From positions 1-11,268 of the forward strand of contig JAVKIP010000041.1 in NCBI GenBank assembly GCA_031459385.1: a stretch of DNA of 11,268 nt. Direction: 5' to 3'. The notes under the pieces were generated by a model. It had not been told where the DNA came from, ran no database searches, and saw only the letters and a list, made by a program, of their open reading frames with translations. Position 1 is the first letter of the stretch. Every line of letters starts with the position of its first letter. The translations under genes and the position numbers were made by a program. Origin of the DNA: Candidatus Fervidifonticultor secundus (lineage in GTDB: Bacteria; Sysuimicrobiota; Sysuimicrobiia; Sysuimicrobiales; Humicultoraceae). Positions 750-11,268 of this stretch are shown piece after piece.

Positions 750-2345
750 TCACGCGTGGCGCCGCCACCGCAGCACCCGCCCCGGCCGCGCGCCGGTGAC
801 CTGCCCGTCGCGGACCACGGGCACCCCGTTTACCAGCACGTGGCGGATGCCGGCCGGGTACTGGTGGGGGTCGTCGTAGGTGGCGCGGTCGGCGACTGTG
901 GCAGGGTCGAAGACGACCAGGTCAGCCCAGGCGCCGTGCTGTAGGATCCCGCGGCCGGTCAGGCCGAAACGGGCGGCGGCGGCGGAAGTCATGCGCCGCA
1001 CGGCGTCCTCGAGCCGCAGGGTGCCGCCGCGCACACAGGGGCCCAGCACGCGGGGGAACGTCCCGTACAGGCGCGGGTGGGGCTTCCCGCCGAAGATGCC
1101 GTCGCTACCGACCATCTGCAGGGGGTGGCGCATCGCGTCGGTGATGCGGTCTTCCTCGCCCCAGAACAGAATCATGGTGGCGGCGGCGTCTTCCTCGAGC
1201 AGGAGGTCGAAGAGGGCCTCGGCCGGTGCCTGGCCGCGGGCCTGCGCGATCTCGGGCAGACGGCGCCCCTCGCACCAGCGGTTGGCGTCGGTGCGCACGG
1301 CGGCCACCTGCACGGCCTCCCACCCGCAGGCGTAGACGAAGTTCTCCCAGCGGCCGGGCTGCTCCAGTTCCCTGGCGATGCGCCGCCGCGCCTGTGGATC
1401 GCGCAGGCGCGCCAGCAGGCTCGGAGGGCCCCCGTCGTGCGCCCAGGGCGGCAGCAGCGCGCTCAGAAAGGTGCTGCCCGCGGCGTACGGATACTGGTCG
1501 AAGGTCACGTCGATCCCCGCAGCGCGGGCGCGGTCGAAGCGTTCCAGCACCGTCGCCAGCTTGTCCCAGTTGCGCCGGCCGGCGGCCTTGAGGTGCGAGA
1601 CGTGCAGGGGCGCCCCGCTGGCGCGGGCCACCTCGATCACCTCGTCCATCGCGTCGAGCACGTGCTCGCTCTCGTTGCGCACGTGCACGACGAACGGCGC
1701 CCCCGCGCGGGCGGCGACCCGACACAGCGCGGCCAGTTCGTCGGCGTCGGCGAAGCTGCACGGCGGGTAGATCAGGCCGGTCGAGAAACCCACGGCGCCG
1801 TCGTCGAGGGCGGCGGCCAGCAGCGCCTGGGCGGCGCGCACCTCGTCGGGGCGCAGCGGCCGGGCGTCGAAGCCGGCCACCGCGGCCCGGATGGTACCGT
1901 GCGGCGCCAGGTAGGCGACGTTGGGGGCGGGGCGCGCGGCCTCCAGGCGGGCCAGGAACTCGCCCACGGTGCCCCAGTCCCACGCCACCGCGGCGGTGCC
2001 GGCGAGCCCGGCCAGACGCGCGGGCAGCGTGGCGCGGGTGGCGTCGGTCAGCGGCGCCAGCGACAGGCCATCGAGGCCGACGATCTCGGTGGTCACGCCC
2101 TGGCGGATCTTGGGCTCGAGCAGGGGATCGGTGAGCAGGCGCAGTTCGGAGTGCGTGTGCACGTCGATGAAGCCTGGTGCGACGATATGGCCAGATGCCT
2201 CCAGCACCGCCGGGGCCTCGCCGCCGTCGAGGCAGTCCAGGGCGACGATGCGGCCGCCGGAGATGCCCGCATCGGCGCGATACCAGGGGTTGCCGGTGCC
2301 GTCGACGATCGTGCCGCCGCGGATGATCAGGTCGAAGGTGGCCAT
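750..2345 (-). CDS. N-acyl-D-amino-acid deacylase (D-aminoacylase) family amidohydrolase, 531 aa
   Basis: MATFDLIIRGGTIVDGTG, APGFIDVHTHS, GVTTEIVG, GFSTGLIYPP, HVRNE, SHLK, GSDG, HPRLYGTFPRVLG and ADLVVFDP are family motifs. ATG at 2345 has GGAG upstream. The ORF-track extension to 3506 is low-complexity shadow frame. Confidence 0.92.
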   Translation of the reverse strand: MATFDLIIRGGTIVDGTGNPWYRADAGISGGRIVALDCLDGGEAPAVLEASGHIVAPGFIDVHTHSELRLLTDPLLEPKIRQGVTTEIVGLDGLSLAPLTDATRATLPARLAGLAGTAAVAWDWGTVGEFLARLEAARPAPNVAYLAPHGTIRAAVAGFDARPLRPDEVRAAQALLAAALDDGAVGFSTGLIYPPCSFADADELAALCRVAARAGAPFVVHVRNESEHVLDAMDEVIEVARASGAPLHVSHLKAAGRRNWDKLATVLERFDRARAAGIDVTFDQYPYAAGSTFLSALLPPWAHDGGPPSLLARLRDPQARRRIARELEQPGRWENFVYACGWEAVQVAAVRTDANRWCEGRRLPEIAQARGQAPAEALFDLLLEEDAAATMILFWGEEDRITDAMRHPLQMVGSDGIFGGKPHPRLYGTFPRVLGPCVRGGTLRLEDAVRRMTSAAAARFGLTGRGILQHGAWADLVVFDPATVADRATYDDPHQYPAGIRHVLVNGVPVVRDGQVTGARPGRVLRWRRHA

Positions 2346-2489
2346 GCGGTTCCGCTCCTGCCCCGTCATTGATGCGCGCTGTGCGCGTTCGACGCCGGCC
2401 CGGCGTGCCCTCTCGTGCAGGCTGGAGGATCGCGGCGCGGCGGGGCGGAAATGCCCACTGGGGCTCGGGCGGGGAGCGTGTCTGTGCGC

Positions 2490-3143
2490 ATGGGATCGTC
2501 GCCGCGACCAGTGGGGTTCCGGCGGGGGGACCCCGGGCGCGTTGCTGCTGTCGGCTGTGGGCGGAGCCGCGGCGCGCTCCGGTGCGCGTGGCCGGCGCTT
2601 GTCGCGCTGCTCGCGGCTTGCGCGGTCGTCCTGGCGGGCGAGGGGGCGCGGGGCGGCCCATCGGCGGTATCTGCCGGCCTGGGTGATGGGATGATCGTGC
2701 CCGGGCAGCGCATCGGGCTGCTCCGGCTGGACGCGACCGTCGCCGACCTGCGCCGCCTGTTCGGGCCCGGTCACCGCTGGCTGTTTCTCGCGGGTGCGCC
2801 GCCGACCTCCGACGCGGTCCACGACTACCTGATGCTCTACTGGCACTCGGTGCGCGCCGCCGCCACGACCCTGGACGGACAGATCGTGGCCTCGCTCGTC
2901 ATCCTCTACGATGCGGGGTTCCCCCGCTACCGGACACCGGACGGGCTCGACTTCCGGACGCGGCGCGCGCATGTGCTGGTGGTCTACGGGCCCCCGACGG
3001 CCGAGAACGCGCTGCTGCCCTACGGCATGCGGCTGATCTACGACCAGCGCGGCATCGCCTTCCGCTTCGACGGGGGCGGGTTCCTGCGCGAGATCAACGT
3101 CTTCCGGCCGGGCCGGGCCGGGCGCATCTGGCACCTGCTGTGA
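2490..3143 (+). CDS. Hypothetical exported/membrane-anchored protein with an internal two-fold repeat
   Basis: Strong GC3 codon bias from about 2690 onward. Hydrophobic stretch WPALVALLAACAVVLAG looks like a signal peptide or possible lipobox (LAAC). Two related segments end in LFGPG and VYGPP. Start uncertain: ATG 2490 follows GGGGAG, while the ORF track gives 2415. Confidence 0.65.
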   Translation: MGSSPRPVGFRRGDPGRVAAVGCGRSRGALRCAWPALVALLAACAVVLAGEGARGGPSAVSAGLGDGMIVPGQRIGLLRLDATVADLRRLFGPGHRWLFLAGAPPTSDAVHDYLMLYWHSVRAAATTLDGQIVASLVILYDAGFPRYRTPDGLDFRTRRAHVLVVYGPPTAENALLPYGMRLIYDQRGIAFRFDGGGFLREINVFRPGRAGRIWHLL

Positions 3144-4091: not shown

Positions 4092-4586
4092 ATGCTCAAG
4101 GTAGGGGATCGGGCGCCGGCGTTCACGGCGCAGACCGACGGCGGGGAGACGGTCAGGCTCGCCGACTTCCGTGGCAGGAAGGTCGTGCTCTACTTCTACC
4201 CCAAAGACGACACGCCCGGGTGCACCCGCGAGGCCTGCAGCTTCCGCGACCACCACGACGCGCTGCAGGCCGCGGGCGCCGTGGTGCTCGGCGTCAGCGC
4301 CGACAGCGTCGCCTCTCACCGGCGGTTCAAGGAGAAGTACCGCCTGCCGTTCTCGCTGCTCAGCGACCCCGACCGGAAGATCGTCACCGCCTACGGCGTT
4401 TGGAAGGAAAAGACGATCGCGGGCCGCCTGGGGTTCGGGATCGAGCGGACGACGTTCATCATCGACGAGCAGGGCATCATCACCCATATCTTTCCGAAGG
4501 TCCGCGTCGACGGGCACACCGAAGAGGTGCTGGCGGCGTTGGGCGCGCCGGCGCGTCGCAGCGGCGGCGGAGGAGGAGAAGCATGA
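4092..4586 (+). CDS. bcp: Thioredoxin-dependent peroxiredoxin Bcp/PrxQ, 164 aa
   Basis: MLKVGDRAPAF...VVLYFYPKDDTPGCTREACSFRD has the peroxidatic and resolving Cys (CxxxxC). Also GVSADS, LLSDPD and ERTTFIIDEQG. SD-like GAGGGAG precedes ATG 4092. Confidence 0.95.
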   Translation: MLKVGDRAPAFTAQTDGGETVRLADFRGRKVVLYFYPKDDTPGCTREACSFRDHHDALQAAGAVVLGVSADSVASHRRFKEKYRLPFSLLSDPDRKIVTAYGVWKEKTIAGRLGFGIERTTFIIDEQGIITHIFPKVRVDGHTEEVLAALGAPARRSGGGGGEA

Positions 4587-5332
4587 CCCTCGACGTGCGG
4601 GACGTGGAGGCGTACAACTACGCGGCGTTCGAGGGCACCGAGGACTTCCTCGGGTTCCGGACGGTGCTGCCCGTGGGGTCGGCGGCCCCCGACTTCACGG
4701 CGATTTTGCTGGAGACCGGCGAGGAGGTGGCCGTCAGCCGGTACTGGCGCGAGACCGACGTCGTCATCGAATTCGGCTCGTTCACCTGACCGTACTGCGC
4801 GCTGGCGGCGCCGGCGCTGGAGCCCATGGCACGCGAGTACGGCCCGCGGGGCGTGGCGTTCGTCTTCGTCTACACGCGCGAGGCTCACCCCGGCGAGCAC
4901 TACCCCGCGCACCGGAGCATGGCGCAGAAGGTGGCTCACGCGCGGGCCTTCCAGGAATCGTACGGCATCGCGCGCCCGATCCTGGTGGACGACCTGGTCG
5001 GCACCGGGCACCGGCGCTACGGCAACCTGCCCAACATGACCTACCTGGTGGGCCGCGGGGGGAAGGTCCTCTTCCGCGCGGACTGGACCGACCCCGAGAC
5101 GATCCGGCACGTGGTGGACTACGTGCTGGCCGCGAGAGCACGCCGCCGCGAGGGGCTGCGCCTGGCGCCCTTCTACGCGGAGTTCGTCGGCTATCGCTGG
5201 GTCGACGATGCGCGGTTTCGGGAGGGGCTGGTGCGTGCCGGGCCGCAGGCCGTGGACGACTTCATGCGGGTCGTGGCACGCTGGCAGCGGCAGGGGAGCC
5301 GGGGGCCGGGGCGGATCGAACTCGGTACGTAG
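4583..5332 (+). CDS. Deiodinase-like / peroxiredoxin-like thioredoxin-fold selenoprotein, 249 aa, with TGA 4787-4789 read as Sec (codon 69)
   Basis: ATG 4583 overlaps the bcp stop (ATGA) after GGAGGAGGAG. The frame reads ...VGSAAPDF...VVIEFGSFT-TGA-PYC... and continues in frame into ORF 4826-5332 (FVFVYTREAHPGE...ILVDD...YGNLPNMTYLV). This mirrors iodothyronine deiodinase motifs APD/N, FGSCTUP, YIEEAH and YGA.PER.Y. The TGA sits exactly at the Sec position. Confidence 0.88.
4799..4817 (+). promoter_or_regulatory. Candidate bacterial SECIS hairpin
   Basis: GCGCUGGC-GGC-GCCGGCGC forms an 8-bp stem (one G-U pair) with a 3-nt loop starting with G. There are 17 nt between the UGA and the loop, consistent with the general bacterial SECIS model. 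GC-rich DNA forms hairpins easily, so support is moderate. Confidence 0.55.
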
Positions 5333-5477: not shown

Positions 5478-7067
5478 ATGCGAAGAGTTCGCGTGGGACT
5501 GCTGGTGGCGGGCCTGGCGCTGGTGGTGGGTGTGCCGCCGGTGCTGTCGGGCCCGGCGGGCCCCACCCGTGGCGGGACCCTGACCATCGCACGGCCCGTG
5601 GACGCCGTCTCGCTCGACCCGCACTTTGAGACGACGGCGCCCGGGGCCTGGATCTACCAGATGATCCTGGAGCCGCTGGTCACGATGGGCCCCGACATGA
5701 AGGTCCGGCCCGTCCTGGCCACGGGGTACCGGGTCGTGTCGCCGACGCGCATCCGCTTCACGTTGCGGCGCGACGTGAAGTTCCACGACGGCACGCCGTT
5801 CAATGCGGCGGCGGTCAAGTTCACCTTCGACCGGGCCTTCGACCCGCGCACCCCGGCGCGCTGGGCCAGCCTGGCCGGGCCGATCAAGGGCGCCGAGGTC
5901 GTCGACGACCACACGGTGGACATCGTGACGACCGAGCCCTACGCGCCGCTGCTCTACAGCGTCGCCATGGTCTACGCCGGGATCGTCAGCCCCGCGGCCG
6001 TCCAGCGGCTGGGCGCGGAGTTCAGCCGCCGGCCGGTGGGCACGGGCCCGTTCAAGTTCGAGGAGTGGCGGACCAACGACCGGATCTCGGTGGTGCGCAA
6101 CGACGACTACTGGGGACAGAAGGCCCACCTCGACCGGATCGTGTTCCGGGTCATCCCGGAGGAGTCGGCCCGGATGATCGCCCTGCGCACCGGCGAGGTG
6201 GACATGGTGCTGGTGCCCGCCCCCGCACAGCTCGCGGCGTTCCGCCGCGACCCGAACTTCACGGTGGCCGAAGCCACCGGGCTGCGCGTGGTGTTCATCG
6301 GCATGAACCTGACCCGGCCGCCGCTCTCGGACGTCCGAGTGCGCCGCGCGCTGGTCATGGCCGCCAACCGCAAGGCGATCCTGGACAACATCCTGGAAGG
6401 GGCGGCCGGGCCGGCCGACGGGATCCTGGCGCCGGGCGTCTTCGGCTACAAGGCCATGGGGCTGGATAGCCTCTATCCGTACAACCCCGACCGGGCCCGC
6501 CAGCTGCTGCAGGAAGCGGGCTTCCGGCCCGGGCCCGACGGCATCATGCAGCGCGAAGGCCTCCCCCTGGTGCTCACGCTGATCTCGGCCCGCGGGCGCT
6601 ACTTCAAGGACGCCGAGATCTCGGAGGCCTATCAGGCGCAGCTCCGGCAGATCGGCGTGCGGCTGGAGATCTCGTTCCTCGAGTGGGCGACGGTCTTCAC
6701 CACGGTGCGCGCCGCGACCCTCGACTACCACCTGTTCACGCTGGGCTGGGTGACGACGACCGCCGACGCCGACTACAGCCTGCTGCCCATGTTCCGGTCG
6801 GACCAGGCCCCGCCGCGCGGGTGGAACACCTGGCGCTACGTCAACCCGGAGTTCGACCGCCTGGTGGATGCCGCGCGCCGCAGCCTGGACCCCGGCGAGC
6901 GCCAGACGCTCTACGCCCGCGCGCAGGACATGATCGCGCGCGACATCATGTTCGTGCCGTTCTACACCACCAAGGAGATCGCGGTGATGAAGGCGGCCGT
7001 CAAGAACTTCGTCCCGCACCCGATCGAGTACAATCAGGGCTTCGCCTATATCTGGATCCAGCGGTAG
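5478..7067 (+). CDS. ABC transporter substrate-binding protein, family 5 (DppA/OppA/GsiB/NikA-like), 529 aa
   Basis: Signal peptide MRRVRVGLLVAGLALVVG, then GGTLTIA...SLDPH, FTLRRDVKFHDGTPFNAAAVKFTFDR (family 5 signature), PVGTGPFKF, DVRVRRAL and YNPDRARQLLQEAG. Confidence 0.95.
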   Translation: MRRVRVGLLVAGLALVVGVPPVLSGPAGPTRGGTLTIARPVDAVSLDPHFETTAPGAWIYQMILEPLVTMGPDMKVRPVLATGYRVVSPTRIRFTLRRDVKFHDGTPFNAAAVKFTFDRAFDPRTPARWASLAGPIKGAEVVDDHTVDIVTTEPYAPLLYSVAMVYAGIVSPAAVQRLGAEFSRRPVGTGPFKFEEWRTNDRISVVRNDDYWGQKAHLDRIVFRVIPEESARMIALRTGEVDMVLVPAPAQLAAFRRDPNFTVAEATGLRVVFIGMNLTRPPLSDVRVRRALVMAANRKAILDNILEGAAGPADGILAPGVFGYKAMGLDSLYPYNPDRARQLLQEAGFRPGPDGIMQREGLPLVLTLISARGRYFKDAEISEAYQAQLRQIGVRLEISFLEWATVFTTVRAATLDYHLFTLGWVTTTADADYSLLPMFRSDQAPPRGWNTWRYVNPEFDRLVDAARRSLDPGERQTLYARAQDMIARDIMFVPFYTTKEIAVMKAAVKNFVPHPIEYNQGFAYIWIQR

Positions 7068-7085
7068 CCGCCTGCGTCCGGCGGC

Positions 7086-7124
7086 GTGCGCGGGGCCGGG
7101 GCCGGCGGCCCCGCCCCCGCGCGC
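7086..7124 (+). other. Strong intergenic stem-loop between the binding-protein and permease genes (probable mRNA stabiliser or attenuator)
   Basis: GTGCGCGGGGCCGGGGCC-GGC-GGCCCCGCCCCCGCGCGC: 18-position stem with one C-C mismatch and one G-U pair, 3-nt loop, no U-tract. Confidence 0.6.
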
Positions 7125-7148
7125 CCGCGGTCTGCGTCGCTCGCTCTC

Positions 7149-8069
7149 GTGACGCGCTTCCTGGTCCGCCGGCTCGTGGCCGCCGTGCCCGTCGTGCTGG
7201 GCGTGGTGCTGCTGATCATGGCCACCATCGACCTGATCCCGGGCGACCCAGCGGCGCTGATGCTGGGGGAGGGGGCGACCGCCGAGATGGTCCAGCGGTT
7301 GCGGCAGTCGCTGGACCTGGACCAGCCCCTGCCGGTGCGCTACGTGCGGTACCTGGGCCGGCTGGCGCAGGGCGACCTGGGGCGATCGATCCGGGAGGGG
7401 CGCCGCGTCAACGAGGAGATCGCCGACGTCTGGCCGGCGACGGCGCAGCTCGGCCTGACGGCCCTGGCCCTGGCCACTGTCGTGGGCATTCCTCTGGGAG
7501 TGCTCTCTGCGCGGTGGCCCTACTCGCTCTTCGACAACCTGGTGCGCATCATCTCGCTGTTCGGCCTCTCGATGCCGATCTTCTGGACCGGCATCGTCCT
7601 CATCGTGGTGTTCAGCCTGTGGCTCGGGTGGCTGCCGGCAGGCGGCCGGGGCACGTGGTTGCACCTGGTGCTGCCCGCGGCGACCCTGGCCGCGCCGACG
7701 ATCGCCATGCTGGCGCGCATGACGCGCTCCACTATGCTGGAAGTGCTGCGCGAGGACTACATCCGCACGGCGCGAGCTAAGGGCGTCGGGCTGCGCCGCG
7801 TGCTCGCCCACCACGCCCTGCGGAACGCGCTGATCCCGGTGGTGACCGTGATGGGGTTGCAGACCGGCCAGCTGCTGGGCGGCGCGGTGCTCACCGAAAC
7901 CGTGTTCGCCTGGCCCGGCATCGGGCGGATGCTGGTGCGCGCCATCTTCGCCCGCGACTACGTCCTGCTGCAGGGCGGTGTCCTCGTCCTGGCGGTGACG
8001 TTCGTCGTGATCAACCTGCTCGTGGACCTCTCCTACGCGGCGCTGGATCCGCGGATCACCTACCGATGA
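7149..8069 (+). CDS. Peptide/nickel ABC transporter permease (DppB/OppB/NikB-like), about 306 aa
   Basis: Starts (M)TRFLVRRL...PGDPA..., with GDLGRS, SMPIFWTG, HLVLPA, EAA-type loop EDYIRTARAKG, HALRNALIPVVT and ETVFAWPGIG. GTG 7149 was chosen by family N-terminus; the ORF-track start at 7086 lies in the hairpin. Confidence 0.93.
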   Translation: MTRFLVRRLVAAVPVVLGVVLLIMATIDLIPGDPAALMLGEGATAEMVQRLRQSLDLDQPLPVRYVRYLGRLAQGDLGRSIREGRRVNEEIADVWPATAQLGLTALALATVVGIPLGVLSARWPYSLFDNLVRIISLFGLSMPIFWTGIVLIVVFSLWLGWLPAGGRGTWLHLVLPAATLAAPTIAMLARMTRSTMLEVLREDYIRTARAKGVGLRRVLAHHALRNALIPVVTVMGLQTGQLLGGAVLTETVFAWPGIGRMLVRAIFARDYVLLQGGVLVLAVTFVVINLLVDLSYAALDPRITYR

Positions 8070-8986
8070 GCCTGCCCGGGCGCGCCGACGACGCGGCCGT
8101 CGCCGAAGGGGTGGCGGCGGGGCCGGCGGCCCGGCCGGCGACCTACATCTCGGCCGGGGGCGCGGCGTGGCGGCGCTTCCGGCGCAACCGCCTGGCGCTG
8201 GCAGGCCTGGGCATCGTGAGCCTGCTGGTGCTCGCGGCCGTCCTGGCGCCGTGGCTGGCGCCGGCCGACCCGGCGCGGCAGGTCCTCGAGGACAAGCGCA
8301 CCCCGCCCGGCCCGAAGTACCTGCTGGGCGCCGACGAGTTCGGCCGCGACATCGCCAGCCGGCTCGTCTACGGCAGCCGGGTGGCCTTGCTGGTGGGCGT
8401 GGTGTCGGTGCTGATCGCGCTGGTGCTCGGCACCGTGCTCGGCACCCTGGCCGGCTACCTTGGCGGCGGCGTGGACGAGGCGCTGATGCGCGCCCTCGAC
8501 GTCCTGCTGGCGTTTCCGTACCTGCTGCTGGCCATCGCCATCGTCAGCGCTCTGGGCCCGGGGCTCGAAAACACCATCCTGGCCGTGGGGGTGTGGGCCA
8601 CACCTGGCTTCGCGCGCGTCATCCGCGGGTCGGTGCTGTCCATCAAGGAGCAGGAGTACGTGCAGGCCGCCAGGGCCCTGGGGGCCGGAGCAGCCCGCAT
8701 CGTCATCCGCCACATCCTGCCCAACTGCGTCTCGATCCTGATCGTGTACTCGGCGCTCTACATGGCGGGTGCGATCCTGCTGGAGGCCGCGCTGTCGTTC
8801 CTGGGGCTGGGCGTGCAGCCGCCGACGCCCTCGTGGGGCCTGATGGTCAGCACGGGGCGCGACTTCCTGCTGCTCGCGCCGCACATCGCGACCTTCCCCG
8901 GGCTGGCCATCGCGCTGGCCGTGCTGGGGTTCAACCTGCTGGGCGACGGGCTGCGCGACGCCCTGGACCCGCGGCTGCGCCTGTAG
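8066..8986 (+). CDS. Peptide/nickel ABC transporter permease (DppC/OppC-like), 306 aa
   Basis: WRRFRRNRLA, LLGADEFGRDIASRLVYGSRVAL, EAA loop EYVQAARALGA, RHILPN, EAALSFLGLGVQPPTPSWG and FNLLGDGLRDALDPR. ATGA overlap with the upstream permease. Confidence 0.95.
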   Translation: MSLPGRADDAAVAEGVAAGPAARPATYISAGGAAWRRFRRNRLALAGLGIVSLLVLAAVLAPWLAPADPARQVLEDKRTPPGPKYLLGADEFGRDIASRLVYGSRVALLVGVVSVLIALVLGTVLGTLAGYLGGGVDEALMRALDVLLAFPYLLLAIAIVSALGPGLENTILAVGVWATPGFARVIRGSVLSIKEQEYVQAARALGAGAARIVIRHILPNCVSILIVYSALYMAGAILLEAALSFLGLGVQPPTPSWGLMVSTGRDFLLLAPHIATFPGLAIALAVLGFNLLGDGLRDALDPRLRL

Positions 8987-10712
8987 CCGCGCGCTCGGCG
9001 ATCTCCGCCGCCTGCGCCAGCGCGTACCGGATGGCGTTGAGGTCGCGCACCGCGCGCACGGCCAGGTGCTTCGCCTCGTCGCCCGATGCCCGCGCCAGCG
9101 CCCGCAGCGCGGCCAGGCGCGGCGGGTCCCGGTGGGACAGGGCGGGGTCGTGGTCGAAGCGGCCGGTCTGCGTGTAGTCTACCGGAATGAGCGCGCGGCC
9201 CATCGCCATCAGCGCCTGGTTGAGCGCGCGGATCGCGCGGCGGTCGCCGGTGCGCGCCAGCGTGTGGCCGCGCCGCTGCAGGGCCCCCGCCGCCCGGAGC
9301 AGGCGGCGGGCCTCGGCGAGCGCCGGCCGCACGTCCACCCGGCGGCCGGCGCCGGCCGCCACCGCGCGCAACGCGTCCAGCCAGGCGCGGGCGGTCGCCG
9401 TGTAGTCCAGCGGCAGGACCGGCGCGGTGGCCAGCGTGTGCACCACGCCCAGGTAGATCCGGCAGTCGCGTACCAGCAGCGCCGGGTCGATCTTGTCGGG
9501 GGTGTCCTCGGTCGTGTGCCACCACCAGCCCAGCCCGCCGGTGTCCCCGCCCGAGAACACGCTGAAGTCCCGGCTGGCATGGGGCGAGTCGCCGGGCTGC
9601 TCGGAGATGTCCATCAGCAGCGAGGGGATGCCGATGCCCAGGAACGACTGGTCGCCCATGCGGCCGGGGCGCGTGCCCTCGAACCGCCCCCCGGCCACGG
9701 CGCGCACCGCCGCCTCGACCACCGCGCGCGCCTCGGGCATGACGTACGCGTGGCGGTTGACCACGGCCCCCAGGCCCCCGGTCGAGTCGACGTTGACGTG
9801 GGCGACACACCGCGCGTTCAGCTCGTGCCAGAAGGTGTCCGCGTACCAGGTGGAGCCCGAGTACCGGCCGTGCGAGTGTCCGGACCAGAAGGCGAACCGC
9901 ACGCCCCGGTAGCGGCGGGCGCGGCCCAAAATCCGCGCGATCTCCAGCATCGTGGCGTTGGCCGTGCCGTTGTCCATGGCGCCGCGGTGCCACGAGTCGA
10001 GGTGCCCGGAGAAGAGCACGAACGTGTCCTCGACCGCCCCGGGCAGGTCGCCGATCACCAGCGGGGTCGTGCGCCAGCCCGTCTGCACCTGGGTCACCAG
10101 GCGCGCTCGCGCGCCCCCGCTGCGGGTGGCCTCGCGCACCGGGCCGGCGTCGCGGCCGGCCACCGAGACCACGGGGATCTTCGGCAGCCGGTCGAGCGCA
10201 TCCAGCGGCGGGCTGCCCCAGATCGTCGAGACGATCATTTCGTGCACGTGCGGGTCGTAGTTCAGGCACACGACGCCGGCGGCGCCGGCGCGCTCGGCGG
10301 CGGCGACCACGCCGGGGCTGGCGAGGCCGTCGACCACCGCGACCTTGCCCGCCACGCCCGCCGCCGCGAAGCCCGCGGGGGCGCCGCCCGCGTACACCGC
10401 CTCGGCCTCCAGCCCCGCCGGGCCCGTCGACGCGGCGAACGAGTGCGTCACGCACGCCACCTCGCGCGAGGCGCCCTCGGCGGTGAGCGTGAGCGCGGCC
10501 GGCCCCGGCAGGCTGATGTAAGCGTCGTGCATGAGCAGCCGGGTGCGGCACCCGGCCCGCCGCAGCTGCCCCTGCACGTAGCGCGCGGCCTCCAGCTCCT
10601 CGGGCGTGCCCGACAGCCGCACCCACCGCGCGATAGCCTGGGTGTCGGCCATCAGGCGGTCGGCGCTGACCTGCTCGAACGGGACCTGGCTCGGGGTGCT
10701 CTGGCGTGGCAT
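8931..10712 (-). CDS. M28-family metallopeptidase-like hydrolase with PA domain, 593 aa
   Basis: RLSGTPEE N-terminus, PA-like insert (AEAVYAG...GKVAVV...AERAGAAG...IPVVSV), GHLDSW..GAMDNGTAN, NVDSTG, GDQSF...GIPS and WWHTTEDTPDKID. SD AGGAGG precedes ATG 10712. Confidence 0.85.
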   Translation of the reverse strand: MPRQSTPSQVPFEQVSADRLMADTQAIARWVRLSGTPEELEAARYVQGQLRRAGCRTRLLMHDAYISLPGPAALTLTAEGASREVACVTHSFAASTGPAGLEAEAVYAGGAPAGFAAAGVAGKVAVVDGLASPGVVAAAERAGAAGVVCLNYDPHVHEMIVSTIWGSPPLDALDRLPKIPVVSVAGRDAGPVREATRSGGARARLVTQVQTGWRTTPLVIGDLPGAVEDTFVLFSGHLDSWHRGAMDNGTANATMLEIARILGRARRYRGVRFAFWSGHSHGRYSGSTWYADTFWHELNARCVAHVNVDSTGGLGAVVNRHAYVMPEARAVVEAAVRAVAGGRFEGTRPGRMGDQSFLGIGIPSLLMDISEQPGDSPHASRDFSVFSGGDTGGLGWWWHTTEDTPDKIDPALLVRDCRIYLGVVHTLATAPVLPLDYTATARAWLDALRAVAAGAGRRVDVRPALAEARRLLRAAGALQRRGHTLARTGDRRAIRALNQALMAMGRALIPVDYTQTGRFDHDPALSHRDPPRLAALRALARASGDEAKHLAVRAVRDLNAIRYALAQAAEIAERAATGAAAGPGRRAARRPAG

Positions 10713-10727: not shown

Positions 10728-11268
10728 CTACCCCAGCATCCACCGGCCGCCGTCGGCGCTCAGCGTCTGCCCTGTGATGTAGCCGGCGTGCGGCGAGGCG
10801 AAGAAGAGCACGGCGAAGGCGACATCCTCGGGCTCGCCCAGCCGCTTGATCGCCAGCGCGTCGAAGAACCGGCGCTGGCCCTCGGGCCCCAGGTCCTCCC
10901 ACTGCCGGATCGACGCGGGATTGGAGAGCACGAAGCCCGGCGCCACCGAGTTGGCAGTGATCCCGAACGTCCCCAGCTCGCGCGCGATCTGCCGCGTGAA
11001 GCCGATGAGCCCGGCTTTGGCGCTGGCGTAGGCCTGGATGCCGGTCTGGCTGTAGGAGCGTCCGGCGCCCGACGAGATGGTCACGATGCGTCCCCAGCCC
11101 CGGGCCTTCATCTGCGGGACCACGGCGCGCACCAGGTGGAACGCGCCGGTCAGGTTGGCGTCCACGATGGCGTGCCACTGCTCGGGCATGACGCGCTCGA
11201 CGGGCTGCATCACCTGCCCGCGCACGCCCCCGGCCGTGTGCACCAGGATCTCCACGCCGCCGCAGGCG
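10728..11268 (-). CDS. Short-chain dehydrogenase/reductase (FabG-like), 5' end outside the window
   Basis: The frame is open to the window edge (ACGGVEILVHTAGG). Motifs: NLTGAF, GRIVTISS, catalytic YASAK, GITANSVAPG, RLGEPEDVA and YITGQTLSADGG. Confidence 0.92.
   Translation of the reverse strand, partial: ACGGVEILVHTAGGVRGQVMQPVERVMPEQWHAIVDANLTGAFHLVRAVVPQMKARGWGRIVTISSGAGRSYSQTGIQAYASAKAGLIGFTRQIARELGTFGITANSVAPGFVLSNPASIRQWEDLGPEGQRRFFDALAIKRLGEPEDVAFAVLFFASPHAGYITGQTLSADGGRWMLG

Follow-up and report, generated by a model that had tools for sequence, protein, structure and literature searches.

Bacterial deiodinase-like proteins in selenocysteine (Sec) and cysteine forms were reported in 2005 by Zhang, Fomenko and Gladyshev, a paper that first describes the prokaryotic family from four marine sequences and suggests for it a redox function distinct from the metabolism of thyroid hormones (PMC1088965). 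In two later reviews, from 2022 (PMC9312934) and 2026 (PMC13188914), the bacterial deiodinase-like protein is tabulated under PF00837 with the motif UxxC, DUF3179 is tabulated as a separate selenoprotein family, and MFL2763324.1 and MBO99264.1 appear as review representatives of the prokaryotic deiodinase-like family. The functions of predicted selenoproteins such as these are described there as still largely unknown (PMC13188914). The same two reviews were the only sources found in the literature in which DUF3179 occurs together with the deiodinase. No biochemical study of a bacterial deiodinase-like member was found in a literature search that lay mostly outside subscription journals, and the word 'deiodinase' gave no match in the text portions and the one supplement of BSepDB that were covered (PMC13326102).

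The locus described here lies in the window, that is, the whole stretch of 11,268 nucleotides analysed, and the following features are referred to throughout.

4092..4586, plus strand: upstream gene for a BCP/PrxQ-type peroxiredoxin, overlapping at its stop with the start of the next gene (ATGA), an adjacency found only within the genus
4569..4578, plus strand: Shine-Dalgarno-like GGAGGAGGAG, a putative ribosome-binding site ahead of ATG 4583, rated strong
4583..5332, plus strand: deiodinase-like selenoprotein gene, 249 aa, with a PF00837 match, an AlphaFold model and a Dio3 fold match
4787..4789, plus strand: in-frame TGA at codon 69, predicted Sec69, opposite Sec170 of mouse Dio3 in the alignment
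4796..4798, plus strand: Cys72, a +3 resolving-type cysteine and the sole Cys in the protein
4800..4816, plus strand: SECIS upper stem-loop, 4800-4805 pairing with 4811-4816 around the loop 4806-4810 with conserved G 4807
4871..4930, plus strand: deiodinase-type anchor and short omega-loop, with Tyr97, Glu100, His102, His110 and Lys116
5030..5032, plus strand: Pro150, aligned with the cis-proline of TlpA/thioredoxin (position of Phe258 in Dio3) and found in 72 of 82 Sec loci

Translation of the window gives one frame of 249 codons from ATG 4583 to TAG 5330-5332, interrupted by a single in-frame TGA in the context EFGSFT*PYC, so that the active site reads SFT-U-PYC; YTREAHP occupies residues 97-103 of the read-through protein. 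The original prediction had described the frame, the TGA and YTREAHP in these terms, accurately as judged by re-translation. The GC3 is high on both sides of the TGA (0.97 on the 5' side and 0.93 on the 3' side), and both halves therefore look coding. A scan for a sigma-70-type promoter found none. The protein is made up of a thioredoxin/peroxiredoxin-type fold (about residues 26-190) and a helical C-terminal extension (about 190-249) of two or three helices, barely covered by structure matches, and it contains no transmembrane anchor, the top 19-residue hydropathy being 1.29, at the active-site strand.

Judged by comparison with its relatives, the gene is real and its internal TGA almost certainly a selenocysteine codon. 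Among the 80 GTDB loci fetched, 77 align at the Sec column and carry TGA in 74 cases, TGT in two, both from haloarchaea, and GGT in one, and TGA is found there in 80/80 metagenome loci, some of them near-duplicates. In the 169 best alignments, stops fell on the Sec column 160 times and elsewhere four times (query positions 198-238). Cysteine occupies the column in 75 of the 85 cluster representatives that reach it, and two full-length Cys homologues (P0005 and P0006) are 63-65% identical to the window protein. Homology runs unbroken across the TGA, and the pattern of Cys or TGA aligned at codon 69 with conservation on both sides, proposed in advance as a check, was found among the genome loci, the metagenome loci and the cluster representatives. 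DNA contigs from three runs, one of which possibly gave rise to the window, showed no difference at the TGA among the matches listed. Together with the covarying SECIS and the host Sec genes discussed below, these observations bear out the claim that the gene encodes a selenoprotein.

Several variant copies were also observed among the relatives. L099 and L100 are TGA-bearing copies that stop prematurely past the Sec codon (98 and 30 codons) and are probably frameshifted. In the haloarchaeal L096 and L097 the protein is a Cys form that lacks the +3 Cys (SITCPIT). A Dehalococcoidia (SAR202-type) branch (L084-L091, L093 and L095) displays U-P-P-C, which is the Pro-Pro of Dio2/Dio3 plus the +3 Cys. 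In homologues P0147, P0148, P0191, P0217 and P0209, Ala stands at the Sec column with a Cys three residues before it, and four of the five also have a Cys three residues after (C-x-x-A-P-P-C), a different active-site arrangement.

The stem of the SECIS, of 6 bp, starts 10 bases after the UGA. In 79 distinct sequences its columns 14-19 x 25-30 are paired in 91.8% of cells, compared with 76.0% in shuffled controls and 32-54% with slid partners, and double changes occur in 64 cells against 17.8 expected from shuffling, in 4/6 pairs, these covariation counts being inflated by the relatedness of the sequences. One pair is seen as A-U, C-G, G-C and U-A, with double changes that alter the encoded residues; RNAalifold recovered four of the pairs unaided, and the loop G21 is at least 90% conserved. 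Single-sequence folding in four windows of this 72% GC DNA was no stabler than shuffles (z = 0.56, 1.60, 1.16 and -0.49), and the support for the SECIS is therefore the comparison across relatives, stability being left unused as evidence. The G-loop hairpin of the original prediction was thus sustained by covariation and by the conserved loop G, and its stability alone proved no better than that of shuffles. As the SECIS lies in coding sequence, where compensatory changes track amino acids (ALAAPA, GMAAPS, SLAAPM), it shows clearly how an RNA structure can constrain the sequence of a protein.

The host genome, listed as 97.6% complete with 5.5% contamination, contains all the Sec genes that had been proposed for checking, each over its family cut-off: tRNA-Sec (selC; 64.5 bits), selA (549), selB (368) and selD (388). 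The first three are clustered within 6 kb of a single contig; selD, which itself has an in-frame TGA, is on another. A same-genus genome carries the same gene in the same place at 83% identity and also has selA, which makes mis-binning unlikely. Among 41 related genomes, eight including the host have a full-length TGA copy and one has a partial copy; selA is over cut-off in 37 of the 41, as against the nine carrying the deiodinase-like gene. In a same-genus genome (L114, G002, ~1500-1700), judged against L103 and window positions 4470-5240, roughly 740 bp, and with them most of the gene, are missing; the deletion is joined at a 9-base direct repeat, with the 3' end of the gene left behind BCP, and is possibly an assembly error. 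Since this genome lost the stretch while keeping selA, the gene looks dispensable.

The deiodinase-like assignment was likewise supported. The protein matches Pfam T4_deiodinase PF00837 at 31.3 bits (cut-off 27), and AhpC-TSA (33.2 bits) and Redoxin (33.7 bits) also exceed their cut-offs over shorter spans, so that both profiles suggested for the search, T4_deiodinase and AhpC-TSA, were matched. A sequence search of the PDB is led by mouse Dio3 (E 5e-7; 22% identity), which also ranks first by profile (E 1.6e-23), followed in the latter search by Dio2 and then by a TlpA-type protein as the best non-deiodinase (5e-13). The AlphaFold model (pLDDT 96.5) is closest in VIA-align to 4TR4 (Dio3; Z 18.3, rmsd 3.2, 161 aligned), with DsbE next (Z 16.0), and in Foldseek ResA is level with Dio3 (E 5.8e-11 vs 6.6e-11). 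Among NCBIfam models the best match is NF038285 (deiodinase_rel), which all 106 alignment members match at E <= 0.001; the window protein scores 63 bits against a cut-off of 250 and covers only model positions 178-324 of 347, and is therefore not a member of NF038285. In a quick-method tree it falls into a 44-row group (38 Sec, 3 CxxC, 3 other; support 97), which takes in most of the Sec forms, and the Cys forms are nested among the Sec forms. The motif labels on this tree were read from a MAFFT alignment in which some rows are out of register, and for this reason Cys counts were taken from BLAST alignments. As for fusions, one match among 8000 scored candidates was an ankyrin fusion (longer proteins; weak evidence), and twenty longer representatives included one with an HD domain and one with a methyltransferase.

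UxxC is present in 74/74 TGA genome loci and in 78 of the 80 metagenome loci. The +3 Cys corresponding to Cys72 occurs in 82/82 Sec loci of the genome set and CxxC in 11 of 77 Cys-form proteins, a distribution in which the +3 Cys travels with Sec; much of the shared pattern of Sec and Cys72 may reflect shared descent. The coexistence of SxxU and UxxC had been considered unusual; UxxC is in fact the family's tabulated motif in both reviews (PMC9312934, PMC13188914) and the rule in this clade.

In comparison with the animal deiodinases, the window protein has FGS-x-T-U-P in common with Dio3 (4TR3/4TR4) and Dio2 (9H48). Ser167, Thr169, Sec170 and Tyr197 of mouse Dio3 correspond to Ser66, Thr68, Sec69 and Tyr97, and Glu200, His202, His219 and Arg225 to Glu100, His102, His110 and Lys116. 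S66, T68, Y97, E100, H102 and K116 are present in 82/82 Sec loci, counts that are biased for E100-Y107, a segment inside a search pattern used to find loci; in pattern-free 50%-cluster representatives, E100 is found in 85/85, H102 in 83/85, K116 in 84/85 and Y97 in 81/85. The equivalent of Dio3 His219, part of a proposed proton relay according to PMC12025243 and PMC7506546, is less constant, being His in 38 and Leu in 36 of the 82 Sec loci. The Ser/Thr/Tyr/Glu/His/Arg network is described in the same papers as shaping the pocket of the animal enzymes, and it has been argued to be structural (PMC7506546), so that conservation of the anchor need not mean shared chemistry. Other parts of Dio3 are missing. 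The N-terminal membrane anchor is absent; Cys168 and Cys239 are replaced by Phe67 and Arg131, with a Cys at +3 instead; the omega-loop is 9 residues shorter, the deletion including Asp211; Tyr257/Phe258/Glu259 become Leu149/Pro150/Asn151; and Arg275 probably corresponds to the invariant Trp168, as placed by ungapped extension. The window protein has in addition a 60-residue C-terminal helical extension. The thyroxine-binding residues Asp211, Tyr257, Glu259 and Arg275 are thus not retained in the window protein, and for this reason iodothyronines are unlikely substrates; thyroxine itself would not be the one.

From these comparisons we hypothesize, giving it an even chance of being correct, that the product is a soluble cytoplasmic PF00837 selenoenzyme that reduces a small molecule and is reset through a Sec69-Cys72 bond. 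The first step is strongly supported: SelB would read the hairpin 10 bases past the UGA, leading to insertion of Sec at position 69. The selenolate, held in the conserved network of Ser66, Thr68, Tyr97, Glu100, His102 and Lys116, would then attack the electrophile of a small substrate to form Se-X; Cys72 would displace X to give a selenenyl-sulfide, taking the role of the absent Cys168/Cys239 of Dio3; and a cellular thiol system would approach the thioredoxin-type face at Pro150 and reduce the Se-S bond there. The intramolecular selenenyl-sulfide cycle of the original prediction is, with Sec69 and the conserved +3 Cys72, a reasonable suggestion. As most Cys-form relatives are without the +3 Cys, the core chemistry of the family seems to need a single nucleophile, and this fits a half reaction of the deiodinase or peroxiredoxin type better than dithiol exchange.

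The choice between reductive dehalogenase and peroxidase that had been offered for the protein fared less well, since the protein lacks the residues that bind thyroxine as well as the Pro and Arg of peroxiredoxins, and the neighbours give no hint of halogenated substrates. Dehalogenation by the window protein is plausible, and the gene neighbours lend it no support. An aryl halide would be the leading named candidate substrate, albeit an unlikely one, and another oxidised small molecule appears at least as likely.

The genomic neighbourhood was studied by clustering the ORFs of 90 loci all against all and by a Pfam scan of 82 of the 107 flanking ORFs, which left out near-duplicates and families scanned earlier and in which many ORFs are not real genes. 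Beyond close kin, the flanking genes of the 90 loci share no pathway, and no aromatic or halogen pathway recurred in the clustering or among the 82 ORFs scanned. The gene sits between an epimerase-family gene plus BCP, with which it is probably co-translated, and a peptide-type ABC transporter, in an order found only within the genus. The transporter run (5478-8986, plus strand) comprises a binding protein and two permeases with no ATPase gene, and is faced by an M28 peptidase with a PA domain and an SDR (8931-10712 and 10728-11268, minus strand). Further upstream, the window contains a HicA/HicB toxin-antitoxin pair (PF07927, PF15919; 188-657, minus strand) at the end of the contig, where GC is lower, an ORF at ~750-2350 (minus strand) that we take to be an N-acyl-D-amino-acid deacylase-type amidohydrolase, and a GTG-started ORF at ~2590-3143 (plus strand), which precedes the epimerase gene and whose N-terminal segment is hydrophobic.

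DUF3179 is the only neighbour that recurs across groups, in 12/89 genome loci and 7/80 metagenome loci, and nine of these DUF3179 neighbours carry their own TGA in UxxC, several of them directly upstream on the same strand. The two genes form a two-selenoprotein unit, with DUF3179 (W-U-P-x-C) directly upstream on the same strand, at L036:1054-1884, L050:4160-4987, L062:47-892, L164:356-1168, L176:1321-2154 and L184:2081-2908; at other loci DUF3179 is of the Cys form, in some cases with a TlpA-like gene close by. The host's own DUF3179 gene is of the Cys form and lies on a different contig.

These neighbours bear on a different possibility, namely that the protein is a TlpA/ResA-like selenol-disulfide oxidoreductase acting on proteins, recycling for example BCP or DUF3179, with the loop serving partner recognition. 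The UxxC at the thioredoxin position and Pro150 in the cis-Pro column are the classic kit of thiol-disulfide oxidoreductases, and in this respect count against the small-molecule reading. TlpA, ResA and DsbE share with the window protein the fold with its N-terminal hairpin (Z 15-16, rmsd 1.6-1.9), the (C/U)xxC and, by alignment, the proline in the cis-Pro column; ResA and DsbE are close in the fold searches, PRK03147 (ResA) is weakly matched by 50 of 106 alignment members, BCP overlaps the gene start, and DUF3179 recurs as described. In contrast to these proteins, the window protein has no membrane or signal segment, has GSxT rather than AxW ahead of the nucleophile, carries the deiodinase insertion after strand 2, and scores 17 bits on the TlpA/ResA family model PRK03147, far under the cut-off of 170. 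Moreover, the second Cys is missing from most Cys-form relatives, the adjacency of BCP is confined to the genus, the link to DUF3179 is limited to a minority of loci and lacking in the host, and the deiodinase pocket residues are better conserved family-wide than Pro150 or the +3 Cys. We consider a protein-disulfide role possible, if rather improbable; it and peroxidase activity are genuine competitors of the small-molecule reading.

A Sec peroxidase for hydroperoxides, of an atypical 2-Cys peroxiredoxin-like kind and working with BCP in oxidative-stress defence, seems doubtful. Peroxiredoxins are characterised by the pattern Pxxx(T/S)xxC plus a catalytic Arg. The BCP/PrxQ proteins share the fold (Z 13-14.6) and a hydroxyl residue three positions before the nucleophile, where Ser at -3 fits the T/SxxC part of the pattern; the AhpC-TSA and Redoxin scores and the adjacent, probably co-translated BCP are in line with such a role. 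However, the Pro at -7 is Ile62, the column of the catalytic Arg is the invariant Asn151, the resolving Cys is at +3 and not at +5, and peroxiredoxins ranked under Dio3 and the TlpA-type proteins.

A role of the UxxC pair in the binding or transfer of soft metals or metalloids, in place of reductase cycling, is very improbable. Several newer bacterial selenoproteins are tied to Hg or As handling in the 2026 review (PMC13188914), and the conserved His102 and His143 are potential ligands; against this, metal-resistance genes do not recur, a single chromate transporter having been found among the 82 flanking ORFs, and fold and motif belong to redox enzymes. Finally, a TGA acting as a true stop (a pseudogene, a split gene yielding 168 aa from Met82 onward, or a sequencing error) or as a Trp codon is refuted by comparison across relatives: databases mostly contain the 167-168 aa downstream piece, Met is common at residue 82 and Trp stands at the Sec column in three database proteins (P0003, P0008 and P0206), but TGG is found there in 0/157 genome and metagenome loci, so that these Trp residues are probably TGA read under another table, TGA terminates many genes in the host genome and in the relatives' loci, the continuous homology, Cys homologues and SECIS covariation speak for Sec, and a split would, according to the model, sever the thioredoxin fold at its active site.

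Returning to the small-molecule selenoenzyme, its gene is of the kind that gene callers truncate, as had been anticipated: the Sec column is missing from 115 of the best 120 database matches, most of which start near residue 80. As these matches are without the active site, the spread of the family is under-counted. The window protein is a soluble, single-domain and confidently modelled relative of the animal deiodinases, which are hard to study since they are membrane-bound, and the natural Cys orthologues with 63-65% identity make the function of the bacterial proteins easy to test. A bolder and, in our opinion, improbable extension is that the clade represents widespread, nearly Sec-obligate soluble reductive dehalogenases, which would apply the halogen-bond chemistry of animal deiodinases to natural or pollutant aryl halides and use UxxC for the reset. 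If true, this would mean a bacterial route of dehalogenation that needs neither cobalamin nor flavin and is concealed in databases as fragments of 167 residues. Dehalogenase activity, if shown, would be relevant to how thyroid-hormone deiodinases arose and to the cycling of halogens by microbes. The interest that remains, in the function, the under-annotation and the covarying SECIS, is modest.

Compared with the described systems, the window protein shares with the prokaryotic deiodinase-like family PF00837 over cut-off, one Sec, UxxC, a SECIS just after the UGA, Cys homologues and a presumed redox role. It differs from the first-described marine members in belonging to a genome of high GC that turns up in DNA runs from hot springs, and its nearest relatives are found in Chloroflexota and others. 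Family and hybrid motif were already known, and the window gene adds a member; the comparison of sequences adds the retention of the anchor network, the loss of the membrane anchor, of the Dio3 Cys and of the thyroxine residues, the TlpA-type proline and the Sec-linked +3 Cys. If the clade does consist of dehalogenases, it would stand between the TlpA-type oxidoreductases and the thyroid-hormone deiodinases.
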